A stretch of 32,000 bases of DNA from Halogeometricum borinquense DSM 11551. GTDB taxonomy: Archaea > Halobacteriota > Halobacteria > Halobacteriales > Haloferacaceae. How positions within the stretch are numbered: position 1 is the first letter of the stretch; each line of letters begins with the position of its first letter. Of this stretch, positions 1,840-24,059 are shown in pieces. Both the position numbers and the translations under genes were made by a program. The DNA lies in NCBI RefSeq assembly GCF_000172995.2, contig NC_014731.1, positions 150,001 through 182,000 of the forward strand, written 5' to 3'. The notes beneath the pieces were generated by a model. The model ran no database searches. It saw only the letters and a list, made by a program, of their open reading frames with translations, and had not been told where the DNA came from.

Positions 1840-2952
1840 TTATTCTCCACCCCCGCCGTAGATGGGTCCTTCATCGGAACCGTCTACCTCAGGATCGAAT
1901 ACGTCGGTGTTCTTTTTGCCGGTCACGTCAATCTCAGCGAGGTTGCCCTTCCGAGCGACCCGCGAGAGGGCGTGGTCAACCAGTTTGATACGCTCTGGAA
2001 CGGGCATCTCCATCGTCCCGACCATCGTACTTCCCGGCGGGACCACCTGGGTCTGAATGTGCGTGTGGGGCTCCATCGACAGTGATCCGTTCGGGAAGCA
2101 ATCCGACCAGACGTTGCCGATGGGGTGGAAGTTCGACTGAAGGTTCGGCCCACCAGTCACCATGAACACGCGGGCCGTCTCTCCAACGTTCGCTTGCAAG
2201 GGCCCCCGGTTGGCCGCGGCATACGCATACTTCTCACCGTTGAGGAGGACGTACGTCGGATCCTCACGAGCCATGGCCTCGAAGTCGAAGCCGTGATGGC
2301 CCTTCGTACCGGCTTCTTTGTCGGTATAGAGTTCGTGCTGACCGAAGTAGAACTCGCGGTCAACCTCGGGGAGTCCCTCCTTCGGTTCGACGAGAATAAT
2401 CCCGAACATCCCAGCCGAGATGTGATAGTCGAGGTTCGGAACGGCACAGTGGTAGATGTACGCTCCCGGATACATCGCTTTGAACTGTTCTGAGTTCTCC
2501 TCGCCGGGCGCGGCGGTTGTGGCGACACTCCCACCACCGGTTCCGTAGATGGCGTGCATGTCCACGTTGTGTGGCATGTCGTTCTCCGGGAGATTCTTCA
2601 GCGTGAACGAGACGGTATCGCCCTGCCGAACACGAATCATCGGACCGGGGATCTGTCCGTCGAACGTCATGTAGTTGAACGTGACGCCCGGTTCAATCTC
2701 GGCGGTCACCTCCTTGGTTTCGAGCGTGACATCGTGATGTTTTGGTTCACTCCAATCGACTGGGTCGGGGATATCCGTCGGGTCGGCCGCTACTTTGTCA
2801 ACCGTCGGTTTTGACGTAGACTGTGCTGTGGACTGGGCGGTTTTCGTCATTGCCTCGGTTGCTTCGGATGCCTCTCCGCTACAGCCAGCAACGGACGCTG
2901 TACCACCGACACCCAGAGCCTGCAGGACACGTCGACGCGTAGTTGCGAACAT
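1840..2952 (-). CDS. nirK: Copper-containing nitrite reductase (NirK), Tat-exported lipoprotein
   Basis: The N-terminus is TTRRRVLQALGVGGTASVAGCSG (twin-arginine plus lipobox). Type-1/type-2 Cu ligand blocks are present: HNVDMH and YIYHCAVPNLDYHISAGMFG. The length (370 aa) is typical for NirK. Confidence 0.92.
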   Translation of the reverse strand: MFATTRRRVLQALGVGGTASVAGCSGEASEATEAMTKTAQSTAQSTSKPTVDKVAADPTDIPDPVDWSEPKHHDVTLETKEVTAEIEPGVTFNYMTFDGQIPGPMIRVRQGDTVSFTLKNLPENDMPHNVDMHAIYGTGGGSVATTAAPGEENSEQFKAMYPGAYIYHCAVPNLDYHISAGMFGIILVEPKEGLPEVDREFYFGQHELYTDKEAGTKGHHGFDFEAMAREDPTYVLLNGEKYAYAAANRGPLQANVGETARVFMVTGGPNLQSNFHPIGNVWSDCFPNGSLSMEPHTHIQTQVVPPGSTMVGTMEMPVPERIKLVDHALSRVARKGNLAEIDVTGKKNTDVFDPEVDGSDEGPIYGGGGE

Positions 2953-3011: not shown

Positions 3012-3019
3012 CTATAAAA
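3012..3019 (-). promoter_or_regulatory. Putative TATA box of the nirK promoter
   Basis: The minus strand reads GGTTTTATAGAACC about 60 nt upstream of the nirK ATG, 10-12 nt downstream of the operator-like site at 3032-3043. Confidence 0.4.
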
Positions 3020-3031
3020 CCGGAACGGCAC

Positions 3032-3043
3032 CGAAGGTGTTCC
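3032..3043. promoter_or_regulatory. Imperfect CGAA-N4-TTCG-type operator upstream of nirK
   Basis: CGAAGGTGTTCC differs by one position from the CGAA-N4-TTCG frame and lies just upstream of the TATA-like element. Confidence 0.45.
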
Positions 3044-3100
3044 CACCACGGTTTAATACCAAATCGATTCCAACCGAGGCAGTCGAGTTGGGAGAATGGG

Positions 3101-3200
3101 AGGAGAGAGGATTAGGTGAAGTTGAGAAGTTGAGAGAGTGAGAGGAGAGAGGATTAGGTGAAGTTGAGAAGTTGAGAGAGTGAGAGGAGAGAGGATTAGG
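3101..3200. repeat. 42-bp tandem repeat (about 2.4 copies) inside a 146-nt C-free tract
   Basis: The unit aggagagaggattaggtgaagttgagaagttgagagagtgag occurs at 3101-3142 and 3143-3184, with a partial third copy to 3200. There is no C on the + strand from 3085 to 3230. Confidence 0.9.
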
Positions 3201-3308
3201 GGAGTGGATAAAGTGGAGTTGAGGAGGAATCGATGAGGCAGAAAAAGAAACTGGGAGAAGCAGTGTGGGAAAATCAGTGCGAGAAAAAATCGGAGAGCGA
3301 GAAACGGC

Positions 3309-5609
3309 TCAGTCGTCGTCTTCAGCCATCACGCGGTCGGGAATTGTCCCCGACGGCGCTTCTCCGGGCGTCGAGACTGGACGGAGCGTGAACCGTTTTT
3401 TCACCATGTCGTAGGCGAACACGAGCGTTCCGAGGATAATCATCGTGTCGCCCGGGAGGCGCGCCCAGAATAGAAGCTGGACGAGTTCACCGTTGTAGAA
3501 CGCGAGACTCCGAGCGGCGGCGTAACTCTGCGTAAACGCCGTCTCCAACTGCAGGAAGCCGACGGGAAGGACGCTCACGAACACCATGACCGCTAACCCG
3601 ATGTTCCAGAGCCAGAACGCCCACCGGAGACGCTTGCCAGTCCACTGAGCGGGCTTTGCGGAAATTCGAAGCATGTACGTCGCCATCCCCAATGCGAGGA
3701 AACCGAACGCACCGAACATGGCTGCGTGTGCGTGCCCGACCGTGAGATACGTCCCGTGCTCGTAGTAGTTGATGAGCGGGAGGTTGATGAAGAAGCCGAG
3801 AACGCCAGCGCCGACGAAGTTCCAGAACCCGCTGGCGATGATGAACATGAACGGGAGCGTGTACGGGAATCCGTCATCGCTGGTCGCCAGCGCTCGGTAC
3901 TGCCCCATCGCCTCAAACAGGATGAGGATGAGCGGAATGAGTTCGAGCGTGGAGAAAACCGATCCGAGCGGAACCCACACGTCGGGTTGGCCGACCCACC
4001 AGTAGTGGTGCGCCGCGCCGATCACACCCGATCCCATCACAAACAGGGCTTGGAACGCCACGGCTTTCTCGGCAGAGCGCTTTTTCAGGAGCCCCATGCT
4101 GACGAGGGTGAGGCCGACGATAGAGACGATGAAGAACTCGAACGCGCCTTCGACCCACATGTGGACGACCCACCAGCGCCAGAACTCCGTCATCACGATG
4201 TTCGTCTGCGGGGTATAGAGCATCCCAGCGGTGAACAGAAGGCCGATAGAACCGCCCGCGTAAACGATGAGATGGGCGAGACCGTAGCGGGATTCCCGTT
4301 TGATGAGCGGCCTGAATCCCCGCCAAACGAGCGCCGTCCACAGCACGAATCCGACGAGCAGGCCGACCTGCCAAAGGCGACCGACCTCCAGATATTCTAG
4401 TCCTTCGTTGCCGAGAATCCACCAGAGTGCGCCGTCGATGTATCCTTGCGCGCCGAACCAGATGCCCGCAAGTCCGCCGACGGCCGCGACGATGAGCGCA
4501 CCCAACAGGACGTGGATGTACGTCTTCTGACGAGGTGGTTCGTAGTTAGTCAGAAGTGGCGGCAGGAACAGTCCGGCCCCGAGCCACAGCGACGCAATCC
4601 AGAGAATAGCGAGATCCAAGTGGAACGTCTTTGCCAGCGAAAAGGGGAGAACACTGATGAGTTCGACACCGAACAGTTTCTCGATGCCGAAGAAGGCGTG
4701 GCGTTCGACGTAGTAGTGCGCGAGTAATCCACCGAGTAACACTTGGAGTGCGAACAACGCCCCCGCGAGCGGGATAAAGCGGGTTGCGGCACGCTGGCTG
4801 GGCGAAAGCGAAATTTCGTCCGGCGGTGGGACTTCGATGCTCGTTATCTCTGGTTCGGGAAGTTCGACCGAGTTGTAGAGCCAGACGCCGATACCGACGG
4901 CCGCAACCAGCAACACCATGCTGATGACGCTCCACGTCATCGTCGAACCGGTCGGAGCGTTACCGGCTGCGGGGTTGTACGGCCACTCGTTCGTGAAACT
5001 GTGATCGCTTCCGGGGCGATCCGTATGAGAGATCCACGCCGTCCACATCGCGAAGTCGGCGAACCGACGAGCGTCTTCAGCCGATCCGATGAAGTCCGCT
5101 GGGAGGCCACGCTCGGCCGATCCTTCGTGGTATCGCTGGACATACTCTTCGCGGGCCTGCTCATGGGCGTACACTTCAGCGGCCGAGTACCGAATCGTCT
5201 CGGTGTTCTTCGCGAGTGACTCGTCTAAGTCCGCACGAACGAGGCTGTTCACACTCGCCTGTTCGGCAGTATCGAGTTTCTCGTACGCCGACCCGTGACG
5301 CTCTTGCGCGTAGTACTCGCGCATATACTGGACCTTCAAGTCCAGGGCGTCGGCCGTGTAATCGACTCCGTAATAAGCTCCGTTACCGAGGATGGAGCCG
5401 TGGTTCATCAGTCCGTCCTTCTGGAACGCTATCTTCCCGTTCTGTACCTGTGACTGAGTAACGATGACGTCGCCGTCCGGTCCGACGACTTCCTTCGGGA
5501 TGGGCGGAACGTGCTGCGAAGAGTAGTACGCGCCGACACCCATCACCACGAGATTGATGATGAAGACGGCGACGAGCGCTTTCGCAATCGTTTGGCGACT
5601 GACTTTCAT
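3309..5609 (-). CDS. norZ: Quinol-dependent nitric oxide reductase (qNor, single-subunit NorZ/NorB type)
   Basis: 766 aa with an N-terminal TM helix plus the extension typical of qNor (GLMNHGSILGNGAYYGVDYTA). The heme-copper oxidase core has about 12 TM segments and His ligand blocks HYWWVG and GHAHAAMFGAFG. Confidence 0.9.
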   Translation of the reverse strand: MKVSRQTIAKALVAVFIINLVVMGVGAYYSSQHVPPIPKEVVGPDGDVIVTQSQVQNGKIAFQKDGLMNHGSILGNGAYYGVDYTADALDLKVQYMREYYAQERHGSAYEKLDTAEQASVNSLVRADLDESLAKNTETIRYSAAEVYAHEQAREEYVQRYHEGSAERGLPADFIGSAEDARRFADFAMWTAWISHTDRPGSDHSFTNEWPYNPAAGNAPTGSTMTWSVISMVLLVAAVGIGVWLYNSVELPEPEITSIEVPPPDEISLSPSQRAATRFIPLAGALFALQVLLGGLLAHYYVERHAFFGIEKLFGVELISVLPFSLAKTFHLDLAILWIASLWLGAGLFLPPLLTNYEPPRQKTYIHVLLGALIVAAVGGLAGIWFGAQGYIDGALWWILGNEGLEYLEVGRLWQVGLLVGFVLWTALVWRGFRPLIKRESRYGLAHLIVYAGGSIGLLFTAGMLYTPQTNIVMTEFWRWWVVHMWVEGAFEFFIVSIVGLTLVSMGLLKKRSAEKAVAFQALFVMGSGVIGAAHHYWWVGQPDVWVPLGSVFSTLELIPLILILFEAMGQYRALATSDDGFPYTLPFMFIIASGFWNFVGAGVLGFFINLPLINYYEHGTYLTVGHAHAAMFGAFGFLALGMATYMLRISAKPAQWTGKRLRWAFWLWNIGLAVMVFVSVLPVGFLQLETAFTQSYAAARSLAFYNGELVQLLFWARLPGDTMIILGTLVFAYDMVKKRFTLRPVSTPGEAPSGTIPDRVMAEDDD

Positions 5610-5677
5610 ACCAATTTGAGGGTTCCAGCCGGTCGGTGTTTATGATAGGGACTGTTCTCAGCGCTCGGGAGGTGTAC

Positions 5678-5689
5678 CGAACATATTCA
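5678..5689. promoter_or_regulatory. Operator-like half-palindrome upstream of nor
   Basis: CGAACATATTCA lies about 70-80 nt upstream of the nor ATG, with a TATA-like tcataaac (minus strand) at about 5638-5645. It is nearly identical to the site at 7226-7237. Confidence 0.4.
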
Positions 5690-5766
5690 GTTGGACGTAT
5701 AGCCGTCCGAGACGGGGCCATTCGGGAGAACGGAGCGCGAGTAGAAGACAGAGACGGACAGGAATA

Positions 5767-6045
5767 TCAGTCAACGTACAACGAGTAGAGGATAATCCCG
5801 AAGCCGACAGTGGTAAATAGACTTTCGACGACGAGCGCGAGATTCGGGTCGAGCGGAAGAAGTTGATCGACGACGCCCCCAAAAATAGCACCGAGGGTAA
5901 CAACGCCGAAACCGATTGCGAGCGCCCGAAGCGCCGGTGATCGAGTCCGCCTGTACGCTTTGAATGCATGATACGTAATAGACCCACCGAGCAGGAGGGC
6001 GAGCGTCTTGAGAACGACGAGCGCCGTTGCGACGTTCGGGGTCAT
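5767..6045 (-). CDS. Small membrane protein (3 hydrophobic segments), co-transcribed with the upstream wHTH regulator
   Basis: 92-aa ORF. Its ATG overlaps the stop of the 6042-6509 gene (ATGA, 4-nt overlap). It is hydrophobic throughout. Confidence 0.7.
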   Translation of the reverse strand: MTPNVATALVVLKTLALLLGGSITYHAFKAYRRTRSPALRALAIGFGVVTLGAIFGGVVDQLLPLDPNLALVVESLFTTVGFGIILYSLYVD

Positions 6046-6509
6046 GTCTCTTTTTGCACCTCAGACCACAGTTCGGACAGACGCTCTTCGGGCGACTGAT
6101 CTCGGTGTTCGATGATCAGTTCGATGGCGTTGTCTTCGGTGAGTGTGATTCTGACTTCGTCAAACGCGAGAATGTATCGCGTAGTGTGTCGGCCATCGGT
6201 TCGCAACTCGACCTGCTCTTCGAGGAGTGACGCCTCACTGAGGAGATCGAGCTTTCGGTACGTGGTCGAAAGCGGGACATCACAGGCGTCTGCGATGTCG
6301 TTTGCCGTCATCGCTCCATCGATGTGTTCGATGATCGTCCGGCAGTCTGGATCATCAAGTGCGTCTAACACGTCTTGTGTGTCCGGCGCGTCGGGAGCGA
6401 ACGGGTCACGTTCCATAGATTCTGTCCGGGCTAAAGTCGATTGTTTCGGAGTCAATTGGTAGGCCATCTGTCTGAGTTTCGTCCCGTCGTCTGGAGTGAG
6501 CGGAACCAA
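6042..6509 (-). CDS. Winged helix-turn-helix transcriptional regulator (ArsR/TrmB-like)
   Basis: The segment DVLDALDDPDCRTIIEHIDGAMTANDIADACDVPLSTTYRKLDLLSEASLLEE matches the ArsR-type wHTH pattern. The protein is acidic, 155 aa. Confidence 0.75.
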   Translation of the reverse strand: MVPLTPDDGTKLRQMAYQLTPKQSTLARTESMERDPFAPDAPDTQDVLDALDDPDCRTIIEHIDGAMTANDIADACDVPLSTTYRKLDLLSEASLLEEQVELRTDGRHTTRYILAFDEVRITLTEDNAIELIIEHRDQSPEERLSELWSEVQKET

Positions 6510-6559
6510 GTCCGCAAAGCGGTACTACTGGTTGAGATGGGGAGACGGCAGGTGGCATC

Positions 6560-7216
6560 TCATGGGTGTGGAGATTCTATCGTCGTCCCGTCGAGGTCCT
6601 CCAAGAACTGCTTTACAATCTTCTCCTCGGCGCGATGCAACGTCTCGCTACACGTTGACTTCGCCAGTTCGAGCGTTTCGGCGAGGTCGGTGAGCGAACA
6701 CTCCCGCGGTGTGTCGTAGTAACCACGTTCGACGGCAGCACTCACCAAGCGTAACTGCCGTTCGGTCAGCAACTGTTCGGGTTCGATATGCTGTCGGATC
6801 TCGTTGACAGTGAACGGAATACCGAACTCATCCAGTTGCGTTCCGAGTTCCGAGAGACGGTGTTGTGGAGCCGTAAGTTCCCACTCCGCCTGCCCGTCCT
6901 GAATTGTAAAAGGCATCGTCAACGGAACGCCCGAGTCCTGTACCGGAAAGAGGAGCAAGGGCATCGTCGTCTCGAACTGGACGAGTACCGTATCCTGGTA
7001 CTGCTGGAGGATTTCGAGTTCGACCACCGAATCGCTGTCCTGGATGTCGGAGACGACATCCTGCAAGTCTGGAGCCGTAATCTCTGCGAGTCCCACTCCC
7101 GCTTCGTCGCCAGTGAGTGCAGACAAGATACGAACCGTCGCGTCCGGGTGCGCACGTGTGACGTCGCCGATCCAGATACCGTCGGGAATCGTCACCGTGA
7201 GATTTGCTCGTGGCAT
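6560..7216 (-). CDS. Bat-like (HTH_10) DNA-binding transcriptional regulator
   Basis: The C-terminal LTERQLRLVSAAVERGYYDTPRECSLTDLAETLELAKSTCSETLHRAEEKIV is the bacterio-opsin-activator-type HTH common in haloarchaea. The N-terminal domain has no Cys cluster. Confidence 0.8.
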   Translation of the reverse strand: MPRANLTVTIPDGIWIGDVTRAHPDATVRILSALTGDEAGVGLAEITAPDLQDVVSDIQDSDSVVELEILQQYQDTVLVQFETTMPLLLFPVQDSGVPLTMPFTIQDGQAEWELTAPQHRLSELGTQLDEFGIPFTVNEIRQHIEPEQLLTERQLRLVSAAVERGYYDTPRECSLTDLAETLELAKSTCSETLHRAEEKIVKQFLEDLDGTTIESPHP

Positions 7217-7225
7217 TGTCTCAAT

Positions 7226-7237
7226 CGAATATATTCA
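7226..7237. promoter_or_regulatory. Operator-like or TATA-like element next to the Bat-like regulator start
   Basis: CGAATATATTCA lies 10-21 nt upstream of the regulator ATG. It could equally be a TATA element. Confidence 0.3.
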
Positions 7238-7260
7238 GGTCCCATACCAAGTAATATTGC

Positions 7261-7272
7261 CGAACATGTTCG
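7261..7272. promoter_or_regulatory. Perfect palindromic operator CGAACATGTTCG
   Basis: The 14-bp perfect palindrome ccgaacatgttcgg (7260-7273) sits in the divergent intergenic region between the Bat-like regulator and DUF2249. A half site CGAACACTATCG is at 7302-7313. Confidence 0.6.
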
Positions 7273-7350
7273 GCCAAACTGGCAGCGGGTCGAGGTTGCG
7301 ACGAACACTATCGGCACAAGGGGTATCTTTGACTCGGAGAAATACCGTGT

Positions 7351-7587
7351 ATGAGCTCAGAGATGCCCGAGAGAGAAACCCGCGAACTAGACGTACGAGA
7401 GATAGAGGGTGAACCGTTCGGAGAGATTGTGGCAGCACTTGATACGCTCTGCGAACACGAAACGCTGGTACTGGTCAACAGTTTCGAGCCAGTTCCACTC
7501 TACGACGTACTCGAACAGCGGGGATTCACGTACAAAACATCGCAGGAGGGGAGCGAGGAGTGGCACGTGAGAATTACGCACGCCTGA
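7351..7587 (+). CDS. DUF2249 domain protein
   Basis: 78 aa. RELDVREIEGEPFGEIVAALDTL...LVLVNSFEPVPLYDVLEQRGF matches the DUF2249 pattern I recognise from denitrification and hemerythrin neighbourhoods. Confidence 0.75.
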   Translation: MSSEMPERETRELDVREIEGEPFGEIVAALDTLCEHETLVLVNSFEPVPLYDVLEQRGFTYKTSQEGSEEWHVRITHA

Positions 7588-7647
7588 GGCAAACGACTCT
7601 ACGCGACCGGCCAACCGCGTCCGTGATCTAAAATACTCGACTCCGGT

Positions 7648-7926
7648 TCAGGGAGGCGTGTGCCAGATAACCGTCGCAACGAACTCGTCTGCTTCGACGG
7701 TCTCGAAATCGTAGCCTCTGTCGGTCAGTTTCGGGTACAGATGCTGTGGCGCACGGTCGTTCATCTGCAGGAGAACGGTTTCATCGTCTAGTTCGGTCAC
7801 CCGTTCGAGAGTGTTGCGAAGCGGTTTCGGTGGCGGAAGCTCCCTCGTGTCGAGCGTCTCCATCGGCCGGTCATCCGGTGCGCCCGTTTCTTCGACAATT
7901 CGTGTCAGGACTCCCATACGAGTCAC
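7648..7926 (-). CDS. DUF2249 domain protein (second paralogue)
   Basis: LDTRELPPPKPLRNTLERVTELDDETVLLQMNDRAPQHLYPKLTDRGYDF matches the same pattern. An alternative start (METLDT) is at 7863. Confidence 0.7.
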   Translation of the reverse strand: MTRMGVLTRIVEETGAPDDRPMETLDTRELPPPKPLRNTLERVTELDDETVLLQMNDRAPQHLYPKLTDRGYDFETVEADEFVATVIWHTPP

Positions 7927-7955
7927 TCAGTCGGCAAGGATGCAGACGATTGTCC

Positions 7956-7967
7956 CGAACACGTTCG
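7956..7967. promoter_or_regulatory. Perfect palindromic operator CGAACACGTTCG
   Basis: It lies in the 79-bp divergent region between DUF2249 (minus strand) and the radical SAM gene. Confidence 0.6.
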
Positions 7968-8005
7968 GCAGTTCGCTTTCGCACACAGCAATCGGAGTTG
8001 CCACT

Positions 8006-9118
8006 ATGAATCCCAGAGCGATCGACACGTCTCAGCGACCGTTCGTCCTCGTGTGGGAACTCACGCAGGCGTGCGAGTTAGCCTGCAAGCACTGTCGGGC
8101 CGACGCGAAACCGAATCGCCATCCGGACGAACTCACCACAGCGGAGGGACAGCAACTACTCGACGAGGCGGCCCAGTTCGGTGACGGGCAACTGGTCGTC
8201 CTCTCGGGTGGGGACCCACTTGCTCGGGAGGATGCCGCCGAACTCGTACAGTACGGAACCGACGCGGGTCTTCGAATGACGCTGACGCCGAGCGGAACGG
8301 CGTCCCTCACCCGTGACAGCATCGATGAACTAGCGGACGCGGGACTCCAGCGTGTTGCACTCAGTATCGACGGCGGATCCGCGGAGGCACACGACGCGTT
8401 CCGAAAAGAGAACGGGAGTTTCGATCAGACGGTCGCCGCGGCGGAGGCGGCGAAGTCGGCCGGGCTTCCGCTCCAAGTGAACACAACCGTGTGTGCGGAG
8501 ACGGTGGACGAACTCCCGAAGATACGCCAGTTGGTTGAGGATTTAGGTGCAGTACTCTGGTCTGTGTTCTTCCTCGTCCCAGTTGGACGCGGACGCGTCC
8601 TTGACCCTATCTCACCAGCACGCGCCGAGGGCGTGATGGAGTGGTTAAGCCACGTGGCCGATGAAGCACGGTTCGGAGTCAAAACGACCGAAGCCCCGCA
8701 CTACCGGCGCGTCGTCGCTCAGCGTGGAAGCGACTCGACTGACCGGCCGTCGGCGGACAGTATCGGTCGGCGGGCCGGAATCACCGCCGGCAACGGGTTC
8801 GCATTCGTCAGTCACATCGGCAAGGTGTACCCATCGGGCTTTCTGCCGCAATCAGCCGGAAACGTCCGAGAGCAAAGCGTCGTAGACATCTACCGGAATT
8901 CGGATTTATTCCGGTCGTTGCGCGATCCCGACGCACTCCGCGGTAAGTGCGGTGCGTGTGAGTTTCGGCATCTCTGCGGCGGGAGTCGATCACGGGCGTT
9001 CGCGTACACGCAAGACCCCTTGGAGTCGGACCCCCTCTGTGACTACGTCCCCGACGGGTACGAGGGCCAACTACCCGAACAGACGTTCACTGCACGAGAT
9101 GCATCGACCGCCGACTGA
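8006..9118 (+). CDS. Radical SAM/SPASM domain enzyme (AhbD/NirJ-like; probably the TIGR04053-type family)
   Basis: CELACKHC is the CxxxCxxC radical SAM cluster motif. Also present are the GGDPL glycine-rich SAM motif and a C-terminal Cys cluster GKCGACEFRHLCGGSRSRAF...PLCDY (SPASM). The start was trimmed to MNPRAID at 8006, because the longer ORF from 7811 overlaps the divergent gene and the operator. Confidence 0.85.
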   Translation: MNPRAIDTSQRPFVLVWELTQACELACKHCRADAKPNRHPDELTTAEGQQLLDEAAQFGDGQLVVLSGGDPLAREDAAELVQYGTDAGLRMTLTPSGTASLTRDSIDELADAGLQRVALSIDGGSAEAHDAFRKENGSFDQTVAAAEAAKSAGLPLQVNTTVCAETVDELPKIRQLVEDLGAVLWSVFFLVPVGRGRVLDPISPARAEGVMEWLSHVADEARFGVKTTEAPHYRRVVAQRGSDSTDRPSADSIGRRAGITAGNGFAFVSHIGKVYPSGFLPQSAGNVREQSVVDIYRNSDLFRSLRDPDALRGKCGACEFRHLCGGSRSRAFAYTQDPLESDPLCDYVPDGYEGQLPEQTFTARDASTAD

Positions 9119-9413
9119 ACGGTCCGCTGACGCACCCGCTGATTCGATTTCCGGAACCGAACTCGACATCGAGACAGCCCAAGAGACGATCCGCGCCAGT
9201 GGTGAGAGTATCAAACGGGACGAGTTGGAGCGTGCGTTCGCTACGCTCGAATCGGAGGGAGAACTCACGACCGAGCAACGGAGAATTGTCGAACGGATGG
9301 CGACAGAAATCGTAGACGAAATCCTCGCCGCCCCCGAATCGATGTTAGAGACTGACAAATCAGCGGACCGAACAGCGCAAACGGTAGTTGAACTGTTCAG
9401 CACCGACCGATAG
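9099..9413 (+). CDS. Small helical protein resembling the C-terminal dimerisation domain of glutamyl-tRNA reductase (HemA)
   Basis: 104 aa. LTTEQRRIVERMATEIVDEILAAPESMLE...AQTVVELF follows the HemA C-terminal pattern (LsxEQ...v..lt..ivnkllh.P...lk....LF). Its ATG lies 20 nt inside the radical SAM gene's 3-prime end. Confidence 0.55.
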   Translation: MHRPPTERSADAPADSISGTELDIETAQETIRASGESIKRDELERAFATLESEGELTTEQRRIVERMATEIVDEILAAPESMLETDKSADRTAQTVVELFSTDR

Positions 9414-9428
9414 ATCGAATCGGTCGGT
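9402..9428 (+). terminator. Strong hairpin spanning the stop codon of the 9099-9413 ORF
   Basis: accgaccgat / atcggtcggt form a perfect 10-bp stem with a 7-nt loop. The 3-prime arm can alternatively pair with 9433-9438 (gtcggt/accgac). Confidence 0.4.
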
Positions 9429-9513
9429 ACTGACCGACACCGAGAGGTACAGTCATCGAAGCGAATAGATTCATCACAAGCTTGAGGGAGACAACCGGTT
9501 ACGTTCAGATGTT

Positions 9514-10056
9514 ATGGAACGAGACGACCGATCGGTAAACCGTCGTACGATTCTCCGAGCGACTGGGGCGAGCGTCGTGGGCGTGGCGTTAGCTGGGTGT
9601 ACCGGAGGCGGAAACGGCAGTACCGAACAACCGGAGAACGAAGAAGACAGTTCGAGTACGAAAACTGCCGAAGACGAAAGCGGTGATGCGGCCGAATCGT
9701 CCGGTGGGTCGTCGGACTTCGGCGGATGGATGGACAACGTGAGTAACTTCGAGAGCGTCACCGACGCTACTGGAAAAGACAAAGTGACCGTGAAAGTAGG
9801 TGCCAAAGGAAACGGTGGTGCTTACGCGTTCGCCCCGCCTGCAATCCGAGTCTCAAGTGGGACGACCGTCGTCTGGGAATGGACCGGAAAGGGGAGCTTT
9901 CACAACGTCGCTGCCAAGGACGGGAGTTTCAAGAGCGAACAAGTCAATAAGAAAGGACACACCTTCGAACACACGTTCAAGGAGAGCGGAACGCACAAGT
10001 ACGCCTGCACGCCGCACGAGCCGATGGGCATGAAAGGCGTCGTCGTCGTCGAGTAA
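9514..10056 (+). CDS. Halocyanin (type-1 blue copper protein), Tat lipoprotein
   Basis: The signal is NRRTILRATGASVVGVALAGCTGG (twin-arginine plus lipobox), followed by an acidic linker. The cupredoxin ligands are H (FHNV) and C-x2-H-x4-M (YACTPHEPMGM). Confidence 0.9.
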   Translation: MERDDRSVNRRTILRATGASVVGVALAGCTGGGNGSTEQPENEEDSSSTKTAEDESGDAAESSGGSSDFGGWMDNVSNFESVTDATGKDKVTVKVGAKGNGGAYAFAPPAIRVSSGTTVVWEWTGKGSFHNVAAKDGSFKSEQVNKKGHTFEHTFKESGTHKYACTPHEPMGMKGVVVVE

Positions 10057-10103
10057 CCTCGGAAATCACGCTTCTATCGTTTTCTCAGTTCGGTGAAAGC
10101 ACG

Positions 10104-10430
10104 TCACTCAACGTATACGCGAGTGACATGACCACCGCACCCGCACTGCTGGATGTGTTCCCACGAGAGGTCGTCCCCGTAGGCTTCGTCCAACGCGTCG
10201 AAGAGGTACTCCGAAGGATGGCCGTGATCGCCGTGAGTGACGAGATTGACGTGGTTTCCGGGTTCCGTGTGCTCGATAGCGTCTATCGCCTGTGAGACGA
10301 CCAGATCAACGTCCACGGCGTGCTGCGGTTGTTCGAGGTTGGCCGACCACGAGTTATCGTGCGTGCGGTCGGTGACTGGTGTCGGTTCGTCGTGGCCGTG
10401 GTCCGAACTGTGAGATGAGTGCATCTTCAT
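10104..10430 (-). CDS. His-rich protein with a C-terminal CGCGG motif (candidate radical-SAM-modified protein)
   Basis: 108 aa from MKMHSSHSSDHGHDE, with internal THGDHGHPSEY and the C-terminus HIQQCGCGGHVTRVYVE. There is no signal peptide. The start was trimmed from the 193-aa ORF because the upstream part covers the operator pair and is not protein-like. Confidence 0.7.
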   Translation of the reverse strand: MKMHSSHSSDHGHDEPTPVTDRTHDNSWSANLEQPQHAVDVDLVVSQAIDAIEHTEPGNHVNLVTHGDHGHPSEYLFDALDEAYGDDLSWEHIQQCGCGGHVTRVYVE

Positions 10431-10466
10431 TTGAACGGACGCGACGAACGAGGAAAGAAACGCGGC

Positions 10467-10489
10467 CGAACATGTTCCGAACGTCTTCG
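10467..10489. promoter_or_regulatory. Two overlapping operator sites (CGAACATGTTCC and CGAACGTCTTCG)
   Basis: The sites are 10467-10478 and 10478-10489, sharing one base. They lie 37-59 nt upstream of the CGCGG-protein ATG, in the divergent region toward the membrane protein gene. Confidence 0.55.
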
Positions 10490-10622
10490 GGTGGAATCCT
10501 ACATTCGGCGAAGTCGAACGGTGAGACATGGCTGGCGTTCTGTTGAGAAACATGGCCGATGTACCGTCGAGAAACAGAAGGGACACCGAACGCATAGCGG
10601 GTGGAGACGGGTGACGGCAGCA

Positions 10623-11789
10623 ATGATTTCGCGGTGGTCCAGACGGTACGTACTCGTGAGTGCTGTGTTCCTCACAGGGTGGCAAGCGGGCGTCGTCGTC
10701 GGAATCCCGCGACGGACTGAGGTGGTTTTGGGACTATTCGGATTCGTCTTACACGTCATCTTCGGAAAGGCGTACTCGCTCGTTCCGACGTACTTCGATC
10801 GAACGGTGGCGTTTCCGTACGCGCCCGCCGTCCAGTTCCCGCTCGTTGCTGTCGGAACGGGCGGACTAGTCGCCTCATCGCTGGGTGTCGGACCGCCGTG
10901 GACCGGTGCGGCGGGTGCGATCCTGTGGTGTCTAGGTATCGGAACGTTTCTTTTTACCCTCGCTTGGACGATCCGAGAAAATCCGACCGGACGCGAAACG
11001 GCGACCGGCGACGCCAACGCTGAACGGCGGCCGGTAGACAGACTGGCAAACGGATTCGTCCCGGTCGCGCTGCTGTATCTACTCATTGGGGCGTACGAGA
11101 CGCTCGCGGTGTACACCGCTTTGCCACCCTTTCTCGACGGCTATCCGCCGCAGGTGACGCATTTACTTGCGGCGGGAACCGCTGGCGTGATGTTGTTTGC
11201 TCTTGGCTTCCGAATGCTCCCCCGATTTATGGTCGCCCACCCACCGCGCTGGCCCGTCGGTGTGGTTCTCTCTACGGGCGCAGTCGGCCCGGTGCTACTG
11301 GCCGCGGGACTCGGTAGCGGGTGGCTGTTTCAGCTCGGTGCGCTGGTCCAAGCCGTCGCCGTGGCCGGATTCGCCACCGCCGTCGGAACGCTGTACATCC
11401 GCTCTGATCGACGTCGCGTCGGATTCTACGGTGTCCTCGCCGGGGCTGGATTCGGCGTGCTCGCCATCACTCTCGGTCTCCTGTTCGCGTTCAGTAGGAT
11501 GTTGCCGTCACTCGTACGTGCGCATCTGCGTCTGAATCTCCTCGGGTTTCTCGGTCTCACTATCGTCGGCGTTACCTACCAGTTCTATCCGCCCGCTGTT
11601 GGAAATCTCCCGGGCGCGTCGAATCGAAGTGCTTTCTACTCGGTTATTGCACTCGCAGGCGGACTGCTCGCGCAACTCGTCGGTATCGGTGCGGGGGCCC
11701 CTCCACTAACGAACCTTGGCCACGTGCTGGCGTTGGGTGGGTCGCTCCTGTTTTTGTATCTAATCGTCGCCGCGTTGGATGCGAGGTGA
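10623..11789 (+). CDS. Polytopic integral membrane protein (about 12 TM by eye; possibly NnrS-like, unverified)
   Basis: 388 aa from MISRWSRRY, with about twelve hydrophobic segments. His residues sit at the starts of TM2 (HVIFG), TM6 (THLLAAG) and TM10 (AHLRLN). No soluble domain is visible. Confidence 0.65.
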   Translation: MISRWSRRYVLVSAVFLTGWQAGVVVGIPRRTEVVLGLFGFVLHVIFGKAYSLVPTYFDRTVAFPYAPAVQFPLVAVGTGGLVASSLGVGPPWTGAAGAILWCLGIGTFLFTLAWTIRENPTGRETATGDANAERRPVDRLANGFVPVALLYLLIGAYETLAVYTALPPFLDGYPPQVTHLLAAGTAGVMLFALGFRMLPRFMVAHPPRWPVGVVLSTGAVGPVLLAAGLGSGWLFQLGALVQAVAVAGFATAVGTLYIRSDRRRVGFYGVLAGAGFGVLAITLGLLFAFSRMLPSLVRAHLRLNLLGFLGLTIVGVTYQFYPPAVGNLPGASNRSAFYSVIALAGGLLAQLVGIGAGAPPLTNLGHVLALGGSLLFLYLIVAALDAR

Positions 11790-11794
11790 GATTC

Positions 11795-11806
11795 CGAACA
11801 CGTTCG
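11795..11806. promoter_or_regulatory. Perfect palindromic operator CGAACACGTTCG
   Basis: It is upstream of the multicopper oxidase gene and identical to the site at 7956-7967. Confidence 0.55.
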
Positions 11807-11864
11807 TCTGTCCGGAACACGAGTCGGGTGCCAAGAAAAACGAACAGCGACCGGAGACAGCGAG

Positions 11865-11874
11865 ATATATAAAG
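11865..11874 (+). promoter_or_regulatory. Putative TATA box for the multicopper oxidase operon
   Basis: atatataaag is the only strongly AT-rich element in the 11790-11962 intergenic region, about 90 nt upstream of the ATG. Confidence 0.35.
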
Positions 11875-11881
11875 AGGGTCA

Positions 11882-11893
11882 CGAACGTGTTCG
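11882..11893. promoter_or_regulatory. Perfect palindromic operator CGAACGTGTTCG
   Basis: It lies immediately downstream of the TATA-like element, a position compatible with repression. Confidence 0.55.
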
Positions 11894-11962: not shown

Positions 11963-13114
11963 ATGAGAGATCGCATTGGTGCCCCCGGAACGGGCCTCTC
12001 CCGACGAGAGTTCCTCGCAGCGACCAGCGGCCTGGGCACGGCCGCACTCGCCGGATGCCAAGCCCCGACGAACCAAGCGAGCGCGAAGGCCGCTCGACCC
12101 TCGACGACAGCCAACGGCGGCGATAGCAGTCTTCCGACAACCAGTCCACCGGAGGTCGTCAACGTTGACGAACAGGGCGGGAAGGTGACGCTGAAGACCC
12201 AGCCAGCCGTTCACGAGGCGCATCCACTCGACTCGATGGGCGGCCCGGTAAAACTACCGCGCGTGTGGGCGTTCCAAGCCGACGACCGCGACCCCTCCGT
12301 TCCCGGCCCCATAATCCGAACCACCGAAGGCGAGGAGATGGAGGTAACGCTGGACAATACGGACGGGAAGCGGCCGCATACGGTACACTTCCACGGTGCC
12401 CGGAAGGCGTGGAAAGACGACGGTGTCCCGACGACGACCGGGATTACGGTCTCACCCGGCGAGAAGCATACGTACACGATTCCGGCGAACGTGCCGGGGA
12501 CACACCTCTATCACTGCCACTTCCAGACGCATCGCCACATCGACATGGGGATGTACGGCATTTTCCGGGTCGATCCCAAGGGGTACGAACCAGCCGACAA
12601 GGAATACTTCATGACCGTCAAAGAGTGGGATTCACGTCTCAACCGTATGATGGCGGGCGAGGATGTGTCCTACTCGCCGCGGAACCGGACGCCGGACGTG
12701 TTCACAGTCAACGGAAAAGTTGCGCCGCGAACACTCCATCCAGAGGACGGGTCACCGCTTGTCGTCGAACACGGCGATTCAGTGCGAGTTCACTTCGTCA
12801 ACGGCGGCTACATGAGCCATCCGTTGCACATCCACAACCACCGCTTCCAGCGCGTGGAGAAAGACGGTGGAACAGTTCCGGAGGCTGCCCGCCACGAGAT
12901 GGACGTGACGAACGTCGCGCCTGCGGAGCGCCACACAGTCGAGTTCACCGCGGACGCCGATCCAGGGATCTACCTCATGCACTGCCACAAGGTCGAGCAC
13001 GTGATGAACGGGAACTTCTACCCCGGCGGAATGCTCACCGGGGTCGTCTACAAGGAAGCGATGAACACGGACATCTTCGACCAACTGATGCAGTACGCGG
13101 GATACGAGCAGTAA
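11963..13114 (+). CDS. Two-domain multicopper oxidase, Tat lipoprotein
   Basis: The signal is LSRREFLAATSGLGTAALAGCQ. Cu motifs are HTVHFHG, LYHCHFQTHRHIDMGM, HPLHIHNH and MHCHKVEH. At 383 aa it has two cupredoxin domains rather than three. Confidence 0.85.
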   Translation: MRDRIGAPGTGLSRREFLAATSGLGTAALAGCQAPTNQASAKAARPSTTANGGDSSLPTTSPPEVVNVDEQGGKVTLKTQPAVHEAHPLDSMGGPVKLPRVWAFQADDRDPSVPGPIIRTTEGEEMEVTLDNTDGKRPHTVHFHGARKAWKDDGVPTTTGITVSPGEKHTYTIPANVPGTHLYHCHFQTHRHIDMGMYGIFRVDPKGYEPADKEYFMTVKEWDSRLNRMMAGEDVSYSPRNRTPDVFTVNGKVAPRTLHPEDGSPLVVEHGDSVRVHFVNGGYMSHPLHIHNHRFQRVEKDGGTVPEAARHEMDVTNVAPAERHTVEFTADADPGIYLMHCHKVEHVMNGNFYPGGMLTGVVYKEAMNTDIFDQLMQYAGYEQ

Positions 13115-13244: not shown

Positions 13245-14336
13245 ATGACATCCGCAAGCAATCTCAGCATCAGTCGGCGAACAGTACTGCGCGGTGCCGC
13301 AGGTGCGGTCACGGCAGGAGTAGCCGCGGGGACGGCGGGAACCGCAACCGCACAATCCGGGGAGCCAAATTACAGCGACTGGTTCAAAAACACCAGCAAC
13401 TACGACAGCACCGTCGATAAAACGGGGAAAGACACCGTTACGATTACCGTCGGAGCAACGGGAAACGGCGGAAACTTCGCCTTCGGACCGGCTGCCGTTC
13501 GCGTTGATCCCGGGACAACCGTCGTCTGGAAGTGGAACGGCAAAGGCGGGTCCCACAACGTTGTCGCCAAAGACGGAAGTTTCAAAAGCGAGATGGTGGG
13601 CGAGACGGGTCATACCTTCGAGCAGACGTTCGAGAAAGAAGGGATCGTCAAGTACGCCTGTACACCGCACGAACCGATGGGGATGAAGGGAGCAGTAGTC
13701 GTTGGAAGTGCCGGTGACGGTGGGAACGATGGGAGCGAAAGCAGTGGAGATGATAGAAACGACGGAGATAGCGGAAACAGCGGAGACAGCGAAAACGACG
13801 GAGACGGAGCATCGGCAGAACAGGCCAGTGAACCCGAGTACGGCGACTGGTTTACCGACGTCTCGAACTTCGATGGGACAGTTGACCGAACCGGACAAAA
13901 CGAGATAACAGTTACTGTCGGAGCAACGGGGAACGGCGGAAACTTCGCCTTCGGTCCGGCCGCTGTCCGTGTTGACCCCGGCACCACCGTCGTCTGGGAG
14001 TGGAACGGCAAGGGGGGAACGCACAACGTCGCGGCTAAAGAGGGTAGTTTCGAGAGCGAAATGGTGGGCGAGACGGGCCACACCTTCGAACACACATTCG
14101 AGAAGTCCGGAGTCCACCGGTACGTCTGTGCCCCACACAAGACGATGGGAATGAAAGGTGCAGTCGTCGTTGGTGATGGCGGCGGGGCGGGTTCAGGTTC
14201 GAGCAATAATGCAGAAAGCACCGTGGATGACACACTCACTATCGCTGGCGGGGTTGGTCTAGTCGGTGCGCTGTTAGCCATGTTTGCGTTTGGATCACGG
14301 AGCAAGGCGAATAACCGTCGGGAGACAGGTCGCTAA
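13245..14336 (+). CDS. Tandem double-domain halocyanin with a Tat signal and a C-terminal TM anchor
   Basis: The signal is SRRTVLRGAAGAVTAGVAAG. There are two cupredoxin domains (SHNV...YACTPHEPMGM and THNV...YVCAPHKTMGM) joined by an acidic GD/SG linker. The C-terminal hydrophobic helix IAGGVGLVGALLAMFAFG is followed by basic residues. Confidence 0.88.
   Translation: MTSASNLSISRRTVLRGAAGAVTAGVAAGTAGTATAQSGEPNYSDWFKNTSNYDSTVDKTGKDTVTITVGATGNGGNFAFGPAAVRVDPGTTVVWKWNGKGGSHNVVAKDGSFKSEMVGETGHTFEQTFEKEGIVKYACTPHEPMGMKGAVVVGSAGDGGNDGSESSGDDRNDGDSGNSGDSENDGDGASAEQASEPEYGDWFTDVSNFDGTVDRTGQNEITVTVGATGNGGNFAFGPAAVRVDPGTTVVWEWNGKGGTHNVAAKEGSFESEMVGETGHTFEHTFEKSGVHRYVCAPHKTMGMKGAVVVGDGGGAGSGSSNNAESTVDDTLTIAGGVGLVGALLAMFAFGSRSKANNRRETGR
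13377..14173 (+). repeat. Intragenic duplication (two 329-bp copies, offset 468 bp) encoding the two cupredoxin domains
   Basis: Copies at 13377-13705 and 13845-14173 align without indels and share long identical runs (gtcggagcaacggg, aacggcggaaacttcgccttcgg, accgtcgtctgg, atggtgggcgagacggg). Confidence 0.85.
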
Positions 14337-15970: not shown

Positions 15971-16146
15971 TATTGGCGGTTGATTGCGTTCTGCGAACGC
16001 TGGAACGGATAGCGGCGTTCAAACGATTCACGAACGTGCCAGAGCAAATCGCGTTGGTTCTGACTCGTGTTAGAACTAGGAAAGTATTTCCGGAAATTCC
16101 CAAGACTATAGTGAAAATTTAAGTTGCTGTGCTGGTTGGGCGCAGT

Positions 16147-17778
16147 ATGCACGAAGATATTGCCGCGATACGAGACGACTTTCCGATACTGAGTCGGTCA
16201 GTCGGTGACGAACAACTCGTCTACCTCGACAATGCCGCGACGACGCAGACCCCAGAGCAGGTTTACGACGTGTTTGAGGAGTTCTACGCCGGATACAACG
16301 CCAACGTTCACCGCGGAATCCACACGCTGAGTCACGAGGCGTCCGTCGCCTACGAAGAAGCCCACGATAGACTCGCCGAGTTCATCGGTGCGTCGGGCGG
16401 ACGCGAGGAACTCATCTTCACGAAGAACACGACCGAGAGCATCAATCTCGTGGCGTACGGCGTCGGGTTGAACGAACTCGGCCCGGGCGATAACGTCGTC
16501 ACGACGGAGATGGAGCATCACGCGTCATTAGTCACATGGCAACAAGTTGCAAAGCGAACTGGTGCCGACGTGCGGTTCATTCGCGTGGACGACGACGGGA
16601 AACTCGACTTGGAACACGCGGCGGAGCTGATAGACAACGATACGCAACTTATGTCAATTGTTCACGTTTCGAACGTCCTCGGAACGGTCAATCCCGTCGA
16701 GGAATTGACCGAGTTAGCCCACGAGCAGGACGCGCTCGTATTCATCGACGGCGCACAGGCGGTGCCGAACCGACGGGTCGATGTCGAGGAGATCGATGCC
16801 GATTTCTACGCCTTTTCGGGGCACAAGATGGCCGGACCGACCGGGGTCGGCTGTCTGTACGGCAAGCATCACCTCCTCGAATCCATGGAACCGTTTCTCT
16901 ACGGTGGCGAGATGATTCGGCACGTCACCTACGAGGATTCGACGTGGAACCGGCCCCCGTGGAAGTTCGAGGCAGGTACGCCGCCCATCGCGGAGGGGAT
17001 TGCCCTTGCTGCCGCTGCTGACTACCTCGATGACGTCGGGATGGACTTCGTCGAGGAGCGTGAAAACGAACTCGCACAGTACGCGCTCGAACGTCTCACC
17101 GAGCGTGACGACGTCGAAGTGTACGGCCCACCGCTTGGTGAAGCGCGGTCGGGGCTCGTCGCATTCAACCTCGACGGCGTCCACGGCCACGACCTCTCGG
17201 CGTTACTCGACGAACGCGGCATTGCCGTCCGCGCGGGCGACCACTGCACGCAACCCCTGCATGACAGGCTCGATATCCCTGGGTCCGTTCGTGCGTCGTT
17301 CTACGTCTACAACACCACCGACGAGATAGACCAGTTGCTTGACGCACTCGACGTTGCGCGGGACGAACTGGACTCGCACCTCGCCTCCGAGCAGTACCAC
17401 GACTTGGTGTACGAACACTACCGTAACCCACAGAATACGGGCGGGCTCTCGAATCCGACGTTCACGAAGCACTCAGAAGAGACCTCCTGCGGTGACGACG
17501 GCGAGTTCCACGTCGATGTCGCCGAGGACGGAACCATCGAAAACATCGCGTTCGAAAGCGAGAGTTGTGCTGTCAGTAGCGCCGTTGCTAGCATGCTGAG
17601 CGAACGACTCGAAGGCATGTCGCTCGAGGAGGTCGCCGAACTCGATGGATTCGTAGACGAAGTCCTCGACGGAACGTATCCTGACATCCGCCGTGACTGC
17701 GTTGTCGGCCCCGAAGAAGTCATCTGCGAAGCGGCGCGTGAACAGATGGACGGATCAAACGGACGCGCAGTGTTGTAA
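16147..17778 (+). CDS. sufS: Cysteine desulfurase SufS fused to a C-terminal SufU/IscU-like scaffold domain
   Basis: Present are LDNAATTQ, the PLP-lysine block FSGHKMAGPTG and the catalytic Cys block RAGDHCTQPLH. The C-terminal ~140 aa carry NifU/IscU-type Cys residues (SCGDDGEF, ESCAVSSA, RRDCVVGPE). An alternative start is at 16129. Confidence 0.85.
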   Translation: MHEDIAAIRDDFPILSRSVGDEQLVYLDNAATTQTPEQVYDVFEEFYAGYNANVHRGIHTLSHEASVAYEEAHDRLAEFIGASGGREELIFTKNTTESINLVAYGVGLNELGPGDNVVTTEMEHHASLVTWQQVAKRTGADVRFIRVDDDGKLDLEHAAELIDNDTQLMSIVHVSNVLGTVNPVEELTELAHEQDALVFIDGAQAVPNRRVDVEEIDADFYAFSGHKMAGPTGVGCLYGKHHLLESMEPFLYGGEMIRHVTYEDSTWNRPPWKFEAGTPPIAEGIALAAAADYLDDVGMDFVEERENELAQYALERLTERDDVEVYGPPLGEARSGLVAFNLDGVHGHDLSALLDERGIAVRAGDHCTQPLHDRLDIPGSVRASFYVYNTTDEIDQLLDALDVARDELDSHLASEQYHDLVYEHYRNPQNTGGLSNPTFTKHSEETSCGDDGEFHVDVAEDGTIENIAFESESCAVSSAVASMLSERLEGMSLEEVAELDGFVDEVLDGTYPDIRRDCVVGPEEVICEAAREQMDGSNGRAVL

Positions 17779-18357: not shown

Positions 18358-18387
18358 CTAACAGGTGTGACTGAGGACTTGAGTGAA

Positions 18388-23588: not shown

Positions 23589-24059
23589 TTATTGGTTTTC
23601 GTTGAGGCGGGCGCGAACGTCTTCCGGATCGAGTTCTTCGATGGCTTCCAGTCCCAGTGAGACGACGAGTGGGTAGAAGTGCCGGTTCTTCTCGAATCCT
23701 TCCTGATACTCGTACTCGTACTCGGCTTTCAGCATCGAGTACGCCCGATCTAAGTCCCGACGAACCGAGTGTGGGAGGTACATATACGTCGGCTTTTGCA
23801 CATCTTTGACGGATTCCTTCGGTTCGTCGGTCTCGTCCGTCGCTTCAGTCTCTTTTTTCTCTGCCGTTTCTTCTGTCTTTGCTGTCTCGTCCAGTTTTGC
23901 TGTCTCTGCTGCCTCTGCTGTCTTTGCTGATTCTCCCGTTTTGTCCGTCTCTTCGCTCTTATCCGTCTCTTCTGTCTCGTTGCTCTCGTCCGTCCGGGCT
24001 CGATCCCGAGCGCGTTGCCGTCGTCGCCGGAGTCGGTCTGCACGGTCTTCTCCGCTCAT
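23589..24059 (-). CDS. Acidic low-complexity protein translationally coupled to parA (candidate partition adaptor/centromere-binding protein)
   Basis: 156 aa from MSGEDR. Its ATG overlaps the parA stop (ATGA). It has a basic N-terminus (RLRRRRQRARDRAR), a Glu/Thr/Ala/Lys low-complexity middle and an ordered-looking C-terminal ~70 aa. No known motif was recognised. Confidence 0.6.
   Translation of the reverse strand: MSGEDRADRLRRRRQRARDRARTDESNETEETDKSEETDKTGESAKTAEAAETAKLDETAKTEETAEKKETEATDETDEPKESVKDVQKPTYMYLPHSVRRDLDRAYSMLKAEYEYEYQEGFEKNRHFYPLVVSLGLEAIEELDPEDVRARLNENQ

Follow-up and report, generated by a model that had tools for sequence, protein, structure and literature searches.

The nirK-nor gene cluster and its palindromic sites

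We analyzed a 32,000-nucleotide stretch of DNA (the window) from Halogeometricum borinquense DSM 11551 (contig NC_014731.1, positions 150,001–182,000), in which a 12-bp palindrome, CGAA-N4-TTCG, recurs in the promoter regions of a cluster of denitrification and accessory genes. An initial annotation of this DNA had proposed the palindrome as a shared operator. The operator system is real and conserved, had been observed correctly and interpreted broadly correctly, and is already known. The gene map of the window was built by hand from open reading frames (ORFs) and matches to NCBIfam and Pfam, and 19.7 per cent of the window is intergenic. The cluster, whose regulator protein is 100 per cent identical to a protein of H. 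borinquense DSM 11551, contains the following genes:

1840–2952, minus strand: nirK, copper nitrite reductase (TIGR02376, 391.8 bits vs. a cut-off of 296)
3309–5609, minus strand: nor, single-subunit nitric-oxide reductase of the heme-copper oxidase superfamily (weak CtaD match only)
5767–6045, minus strand: DUF7521 membrane gene
6042–6509, minus strand: ArsR/HTH_20-like gene
6560–7216, minus strand: 218-aa HTH_10 (Bat-type) regulator (Pfam HTH_10 PF04967, E = 2e-18)
7351–7587, plus strand: DUF2249 gene (PF10006, E = 3.7e-21)
7648–7926, minus strand: second DUF2249 gene (PF10006, E = 2.2e-14)
8006–9118, plus strand: TIGR04053 radical SAM (rSAM)/SPASM gene (498.5 bits vs. a cut-off of 395)
9153–9413, plus strand: small ORF (weak match to the glutamyl-tRNA reductase dimerisation domain PF00745, E = 1.4e-8)
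9514–10056, plus strand: halocyanin (TIGR03102, 143 bits)
10104–10431, minus strand: CGCGG-family putative rSAM-modified precursor of a ribosomally synthesized and post-translationally modified peptide (TIGR03995, 138.4 bits vs. a cut-off of 70)
10623–11789, plus strand: membrane protein
11963–13114, plus strand: two-domain multicopper oxidase (MCO)
13245–14336, plus strand: double halocyanin

Orthologues of the gene at 3309–5609 are annotated as cbb3-type subunit I (nor). The ArsR/HTH_20-like and DUF7521 genes lie directly downstream of the regulator gene and are probably co-transcribed with it. The TIGR04053 rSAM protein and the TIGR03995 CGCGG protein both score above their curated cut-offs, and their genes are about 1 kb apart. 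The rSAM gene, the small ORF (for which a homologue was seen in one related locus only), and the halocyanin gene probably form one transcription unit that is read from the palindrome at 7956.

A pattern search found five exact copies of CGAA-N4-TTCG in the window, starting at 7261, 7956, 10478, 11795, and 11882. These are the same five copies that the initial annotation had reported, and its one-mismatch sites at 3032, 5678, 7226, and 10467 are likewise as it described them. Two more one-mismatch sites within the cluster (7302–7313 and 9462–9473) were absent from it. The sites that we assign to promoters are as follows:

3032–3043: nirK site, CGAAGGTGTTCC, one mismatch to CGAA-N4-TTCG, 79 nt before the nirK ATG (2952, minus strand)
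5678–5689: nor site, CGAACATATTCA, one mismatch, 68 nt before the qNor ATG (5609, minus strand)
7226–7237: proximal regulator site, CGAATATATTCA, with one mismatch and its centre at -15 relative to the regulator ATG (7216)
7261–7272: exact site, CGAACATGTTCG, whose centre is at -50 relative to the regulator gene and at -85 relative to the DUF2249 gene (7351)
7302–7313: DUF2249 site, CGAACACTATCG, with one mismatch and its centre at -44 relative to the DUF2249 ATG (7351)
7956–7967: exact site, CGAACACGTTCG, in the divergent DUF2249/rSAM promoter
10467–10489: double site, CGAACATGTTCC / CGAACGTCTTCG, 11 nt from start to start with one base in common
11795–11806: exact site, CGAACACGTTCG, separated by 6 nt from the membrane-protein stop codon upstream and by 157 nt from the MCO ATG downstream
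11882–11893: exact site, CGAACGTGTTCG, whose centre is at -75 relative to the MCO ATG (11963)

The raw count of exact sites is only mildly unusual (1.77 per window are expected from shuffles, and two of 100 shuffles reach five); what matters is their placement. All five are intergenic on our gene map and fall into four intergenic promoter regions between 7.2 and 11.9 kb that total 577 nt, where about 0.03 would be expected, and a Poisson estimate puts the chance of five exact sites in 577 nt at the order of 1e-9. Among the 256 palindromes with a 4-mer half-site and an N4 spacer, CGAA ranks first in the window with its five intergenic matches, while every other half-site has at most one. Four of the five exact sites also fit the stricter form CGAAC-N2-GTTCG, a core preference that recurs in related loci (see below). 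The abutting sites at 10467 and 10478 are one-mismatch versions of the strict form, and the nirK (3032) and nor (5678) sites deviate at one position from the loose form and at two from the strict one.

One-mismatch sites are not significant by themselves. Those at 3032, 5678, 7226, and 7302 are credible because their positions are conserved in orthologous promoters (see below), and the one at 10467 because it abuts the exact site at 10478. The initial annotation had found no further sites in intergenic DNA of the rest of the window, which is correct for exact sites but not for one-mismatch sites, as three of these (23614, 23810, and 31959) lie in putative intergenic DNA outside the cluster. 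They are probably due to chance, since coding DNA holds 31 one-mismatch sites.

Several sites stand in a defined setting. On the minus strand, a TTTTATAG element (3012–3019) follows the nirK site by 12 nt. The exact site at 7261 abuts the TATA-like element of the regulator gene, and the proximal site at 7226 lies downstream of this gene's TATA-like element AATATTA. The site at 7956 is equidistant (44.5 nt) from the rSAM ATG (8006) and an in-frame ATG (7917) of the second DUF2249 gene. In the mechanical ORF list this gene opens with GTG; the ATG at 7917 is its probable true start, because the site at 7956 would then lie midway and at the modal offset of the orthologues. The double site precedes the CGCGG ATG (10431, minus strand) by 36–58 nt and the membrane-protein ATG (10623) by about 135–155 nt. 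The site at 11795 may be a second, distal MCO site, and a TTTTATG element is found at about -28 of the MCO ATG.

The DNA that separates the nor stop codon from the nirK promoter contains a purine-rich 42-nt tandem repeat (3086–3200, 2.7 copies, 95 per cent match). No copy of it was detected in 87 other fetched loci and it has no Rfam match; the Rfam scan of the window as a whole returned no families.

Conservation of the palindrome in haloarchaea

A search with the regulator protein against one genome per species yielded 80 related loci (1.38 Mb) from many genera, with regulators of 46–76 per cent identity. These loci contain 369 exact sites compared to about 70 expected, an approximately 5-fold over-representation. 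The intergenic density of the motif is about five times its coding density, an enrichment that control palindromes do not have. This ratio is a lower bound, because the conservative ORF-based gene caller over-extends gene starts, and intergenic sites are consequently under-counted. The preferred core in the 80 loci is CGAAC-AY/RT-GTTCG, and a flanking C/G lengthens the palindrome.

The sites are also positionally conserved. Exact sites were counted in a region that extends from 250 nt before to 20 nt past the estimated gene starts of orthologues. The offsets form sharp peaks:

nirK orthologues: exact site in 14 of 16 promoters, centre peak at -86
nor orthologues: exact site in six of eight promoters, centre peak at -73
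DUF2249 orthologues (7351 type): exact site in 27 of 30 promoters, mode at -44
DUF2249 orthologues (7648 type): exact site in 29 of 32 promoters, mode at -44
halocyanin orthologues: exact site in 11 of 11 promoters, at about -67 to -91

Specifically, the modal offset of -44 among DUF2249 orthologues is that of the window's weak site at 7302, and the gap between the nor site and the ATG is 66 nt in Haloferax (Hfx.) larsenii vs. 68 nt in the window. Judged by their position in orthologous promoters, the window's weak nirK, nor, and DUF2249 (7302) sites occupy conserved places. The plasmid-borne MCO orthologues have a site centred at about -74 to -78, which is exact in Halorussus limi and Hfx. 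larsenii and has one mismatch in Halorubrum. The CGCGG orthologue of Halorussus lipolyticus, likewise plasmid-borne, is preceded by an exact site centred at -45, and the intergenic region of Hfx. larsenii that matches that of the site at 7956 holds two exact sites. In the related loci, the site nearest to the rSAM gene is usually 350–680 nt upstream, so that this gene typically comes second in a unit under motif control. The proposal that the palindrome is a shared cis element linking the nirK, nor, DUF2249, rSAM, CGCGG, membrane-protein, and MCO genes is supported, and the element is conserved in orthologous promoters, at fixed offsets.

A motif of this kind has been described in Haloferax mediterranei, where CGAAYATDKTYG is found in the nar, nirK, nor, and nos promoters, with gaps to the ATG of 79 nt for nirK, 66 nt for nor, and 69 nt for nos (PMC10062603, published in 2023). 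Its point mutation significantly lowered the activity of the nos and nor promoters and did not significantly lower that of the nirK promoter (PMC10062603). Supplementary Table S8 of the same study places the motif at MCO/HTH, CGCGG/nor, halocyanin, nirK, and DUF2249/TIGR04053 rSAM promoters. A 2024 study counted eight copies in the 12.5-kb nirK-nor cluster of H. mediterranei, found by RNA-seq that the homologous cluster, including its DUF2249, halocyanin, and MCO genes, is induced under denitrifying conditions (the string of halocyanin, transmembrane-protein, and MCO genes forming denitrification-induced operons), and proposed the Bat-like regulator of the cluster as a main regulator (PMC11218638). 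The initial annotation had mentioned a link of such repeats to nar, nir, and nor promoters and to the regulator NarO; this agrees with the work of Hattori et al. (2016) as cited in PMC10062603, according to which a similar motif occurs in other genera, Halogeometricum among them. The motif and nearly all of the genes that it links are already published for H. mediterranei. The extension of the regulon to the rSAM, CGCGG, DUF2249, membrane-protein, and oxidase genes, which the initial annotation had offered as its new point, is therefore not new, and the candidate binder is also already in print for this sister genus (PMC10062603, Table S8; PMC11218638).

We consider it very improbable that the palindromes are not operators at all and instead represent chance occurrences, basal promoter elements, or RNA hairpins and terminators. 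The consensus of the haloarchaeal transcription factor B recognition element (BRE) also contains CGAA, and a consensus scan of the window marks 7259–7274 as a terminator-like hairpin. This match, however, is the palindrome itself, and a T tract is missing at most sites. Moreover, the sites are confined to one functional cluster and are found at no other promoter of the window, their distances upstream of start codons are fixed in many genera, and point mutations reduce promoter activity in H. mediterranei (PMC10062603). A sigma-70 promoter scan of the window returned nothing, its bacterial consensus being irrelevant for archaea.

The cluster-encoded regulator as candidate binder

The regulator encoded at 6560–7216 has a C-terminal HTH_10 domain and an N-terminal alpha/beta domain that lacks a cysteine cluster, as the initial annotation had noted. 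Its only cysteines, C173 and C189, are inside the HTH, and the same holds across 82 family members. NarO homologues, by comparison, have cysteines at about positions 17, 81–86, and 91–96. In a BLASTP comparison with NarO, only residues 150–206 of the regulator align, a 57-aa HTH segment with 37 per cent identity, and there is no full-length homology. Because of this HTH-only alignment and the absence of the N-terminal cluster CXnCXCX7C, the regulator is not NarO. It is not Bat proper either, which has PAS and GAF domains before HTH_10, as Pfam finds HTH_10 alone. An AlphaFold2 model of moderate confidence (pLDDT 78.6) shows a small alpha/beta N-terminal domain. A Foldseek search of the Protein Data Bank (PDB) gave no meaningful match for this domain (the best compact one being Ta1207, 5m86, TMq 0.44), and a PDB sequence search returned nothing.

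The promoters of the regulator family are themselves rich in the motif. An exact copy lies within 250 nt of the gene's own start in 69 of the 82 family members, with sharp maxima between -44 and -50 and between -7 and -15. A TATA-like element directly adjoins the distal site, and the sequence CGAACATGTTCG occurs at the same offset as in the window in most of the 82 promoters. In place of the window's proximal one-mismatch site at 7226, many orthologues have an exact CGAATATATTCG. The commonest spacing of neighbouring sites in the related loci is 35 nt (18 cases), which is also that of the window pair 7261/7226. Of 26 orphan loci, where the regulator gene has no denitrification genes within 10 kb, 20 still retain the motif in its promoter, with 30 sites in 3.4 kb vs. 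47 in 397 kb. Both the HTH of the family and the motif are nearly invariant between genera.

This pattern favors the Cys-less 218-aa protein as an autoregulated binder of the palindrome, and the initial annotation's choice of it as a good candidate is consistent with the own-promoter sites of its family. Specifically, we favor it over NarO because 69 of the 82 genes of its family carry the motif in their own promoters vs. three of ten NarO-family genes, because its HTH is almost invariant, and because H. mediterranei, in which the motif is functional, has been reported to lack a NarO homologue (PMC10062603).

The competing possibility is that the palindrome is bound by a NarO-type regulator, which has an N-terminal cysteine cluster, is a proposed oxygen sensor, and is encoded elsewhere, and that the Cys-less protein is a member of the regulon or a second-tier regulator. 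We regard this as unlikely, despite genetic evidence in its favor. According to Hattori et al. (2016), as cited in PMC10062603 and PMC11218638, NarO is required for denitrifying growth and for activation of nar and nirK in Hfx. volcanii, and the cis element was first noted in that NarO study. The two regulators also share plasmids, with a distance of 5 kb in Halomarina, and the NarO genes that have the motif carry it at -45; in the narO-nar intergenic region of the Hfx. volcanii plasmid pHV3, for example, CGAATCCGTTCG is centred at -44.5 of narO. On the other hand, the putative recognition helix of NarO varies between genera and the motif does not, the window contains no NarO gene, and resemblance to the window protein is limited to the HTH.

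Several considerations weigh against our overall model (see below) with the Cys-less protein as binder, in addition to the genetic requirement for NarO and the motif at -45 of some NarO genes. A mere target of another factor would retain the motif in its promoter too, so that a signature of autoregulation is no proof of binding, and the binder role suggested here is correlative. The recognition helix is near-invariant in motif-positive and motif-negative family members alike and does not discriminate between them. The nirK and nor sites of H. borinquense are degenerate, and the neighbouring ArsR/HTH_20 gene is likewise consistently linked to motif-bearing promoters. Finally, the placement of sites upstream of a TATA element or over a transcript start is read from sequence only.

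The ArsR/HTH_20-like protein (6042–6509) could itself bind the palindrome, although we judge this improbable. The gene string of Bat-like regulator, HTH_20 protein, and DUF7521 is conserved, and the HTH_20-DUF7521 pair is transcribed divergently from MCO in Halobaculum, Halorussus, and Hfx. larsenii, with an exact motif in the shared intergenic region in Halorussus and Hfx. larsenii and a one-mismatch motif in Halobaculum. However, most regulator loci (e.g. those of Haloarcula and Halosimplex) have no HTH_20 gene next to the Bat-like gene and yet retain the motif at the promoter of the latter, and the few HTH_20 promoters that could be scored have no consistent offset. A search of the literature after PMC11218638 found no later paper that names the binder of the palindrome.

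Two observations concern the genes around the regulator. The string of Bat-like, ArsR-HTH_20, and DUF7521 genes recurs across genera, and the HTH_20-DUF7521 pair may constitute another regulatory module of this regulon. On a plasmid of Halomarina sp. BND7, a Cys-less regulator (1727–2383) and a NarO-type regulator (7001–7642) are part of one denitrification island, and Cys-less and NarO-type, Cys-containing regulators co-occur on several other haloarchaeal megaplasmids. This co-occurrence suggests a two-regulator circuit.

Proposed mode of action

We conclude with moderate confidence that the 12-bp palindrome is the operator of a haloarchaeal denitrification regulon and is bound by an HTH_10 factor, for which the 6560–7216 protein is the leading candidate. 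The operator would have the extended consensus (C)CGAAC-AY/RT-GTTCG(G) and would be bound by a dimeric HTH_10 factor, most likely the Cys-less 218-aa protein encoded in the cluster. At target promoters, the site would lie upstream of the TATA/BRE region and mediate activation under conditions of low oxygen or N-oxides. The predicted targets are nirK, nor, both DUF2249 genes, the rSAM-halocyanin unit, the CGCGG gene, and the unit of membrane-protein, MCO, and halocyanin genes. Activation from upstream positions agrees with the mutagenesis in H. mediterranei (PMC10062603).

At the regulator's own promoter, the site at -50 that abuts the TATA-like element would provide positive autoregulation. 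The site at -15 would overlap the expected start of a leaderless or short-leader mRNA and provide negative feedback, so that 7226–7237 is a putative autorepression site. Only at this site is repression plausible. The initial annotation had taken the varied positions of the sites, including that at 11882 just downstream of a TATA-like element, to suggest both activation and repression. Dual action is plausible at the regulator's own promoter (-50 and -15). Repression at 11882 is not supported, and we reject it, because the upstream ATATATAAA run on which it would depend is not conserved in MCO orthologues. In these orthologues, the site is instead consistently followed after about 45 nt by a TATA-like run, and this run by the ATG after about 28 nt.

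The Cys-less HTH_10 proteins of about 215 aa constitute a family that is widespread in Halobacteria and distinct from NarO. A bolder proposal, which we advance tentatively and with less confidence than the operator role itself, is that this family binds the palindrome directly and is the master regulator of the nirK/nor branch of haloarchaeal denitrification. Such a regulator would act on its own gene by way of two operators, spaced 35 bp apart, that flank the TATA-like element, one for activation (-50) and one for autorepression (-15). The rSAM/CGCGG and DUF2249 genes would be obligatory co-regulated members and might function in the handling of NO, copper, or redox state.

Other features of the window

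Outside the cluster, a fused gene for a cysteine desulfurase (Aminotran_5) and a NifU-N scaffold (16129–17778, plus strand) lies downstream of a periplasmic-binding-protein gene and has no palindrome. Further along, at least three ORB-like repeats (CCCC..GTTTCCGTCGTT) at 18384–18547 and four to six inverted copies (AACGACGGAAAYGYGGGGTGGGTG) at 18795–19290 flank a stretch of lower GC content directly upstream of an orc1/cdc6 gene (19335–20594, plus strand); a ParA gene is located at 24056–24877 (minus strand). The region 18384–19290 looks like a replication origin.

Implications

In hypersaline systems, N2O and NO are released by haloarchaeal denitrification. Our additions to what is known of its regulation are modest: the fixed promoter geometry across genera, the two-operator promoter of the regulator, the distinction of this regulator from NarO, and the constant membership of the rSAM/CGCGG and DUF2249 genes. 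They make the motif published for H. mediterranei a pan-haloarchaeal one with a fixed promoter geometry, and the comparative data single out a conserved Cys-less HTH_10 protein as the first candidate for its binder. For the uncharacterised rSAM/CGCGG and DUF2249 families, this constant regulon membership is the strongest clue to function so far.

Comparison with known systems

The closest known counterpart is the H. mediterranei motif CGAAYATDKTYG, which has the same core CGAA-N4-TTCG and is present in multiple copies in the nirK-nor cluster. The nirK gap is 79 nt in both organisms, and the nor gap is 68 nt in the window vs. 66 nt in H. mediterranei. The H. mediterranei cluster also has the same accessory genes, namely those for MCO, halocyanins, DUF2249 proteins, the TIGR04053 rSAM protein, the CGCGG protein, and a Bat-like HTH protein. 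The window differs in genus and in gene order, and its nirK and nor sites are degenerate whereas those of its accessory genes are perfect. The role of the motif in H. mediterranei rests on mutagenesis and expression data, whereas the H. borinquense sites are known from sequence.

NarO of Hfx. volcanii shares with the window regulator an HTH of the HTH_10 type and an association with an inverted repeat in denitrification promoters. Unlike NarO, the window regulator lacks the CXnCXCX7C cluster, has an unrelated N-terminal domain, and is encoded in the nirK-nor cluster and not upstream of nar.

In bacteria, the FNR, DNR, and NnrR boxes (TTGAT-N4-ATCAA) are palindromes of denitrification regulons that precede nir, nor, nos, and accessory genes. 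They are read by a dimeric factor that responds to O2 or NO and is often autoregulated. The logic is analogous, in that a palindrome with a 4-bp spacer is repeated across denitrification promoters. The two systems differ in the sequence of the palindrome, in the fold of the factor (CRP/FNR vs. HTH_10), and in the basal transcription machinery, which in haloarchaea is archaeal (TBP/TFB).

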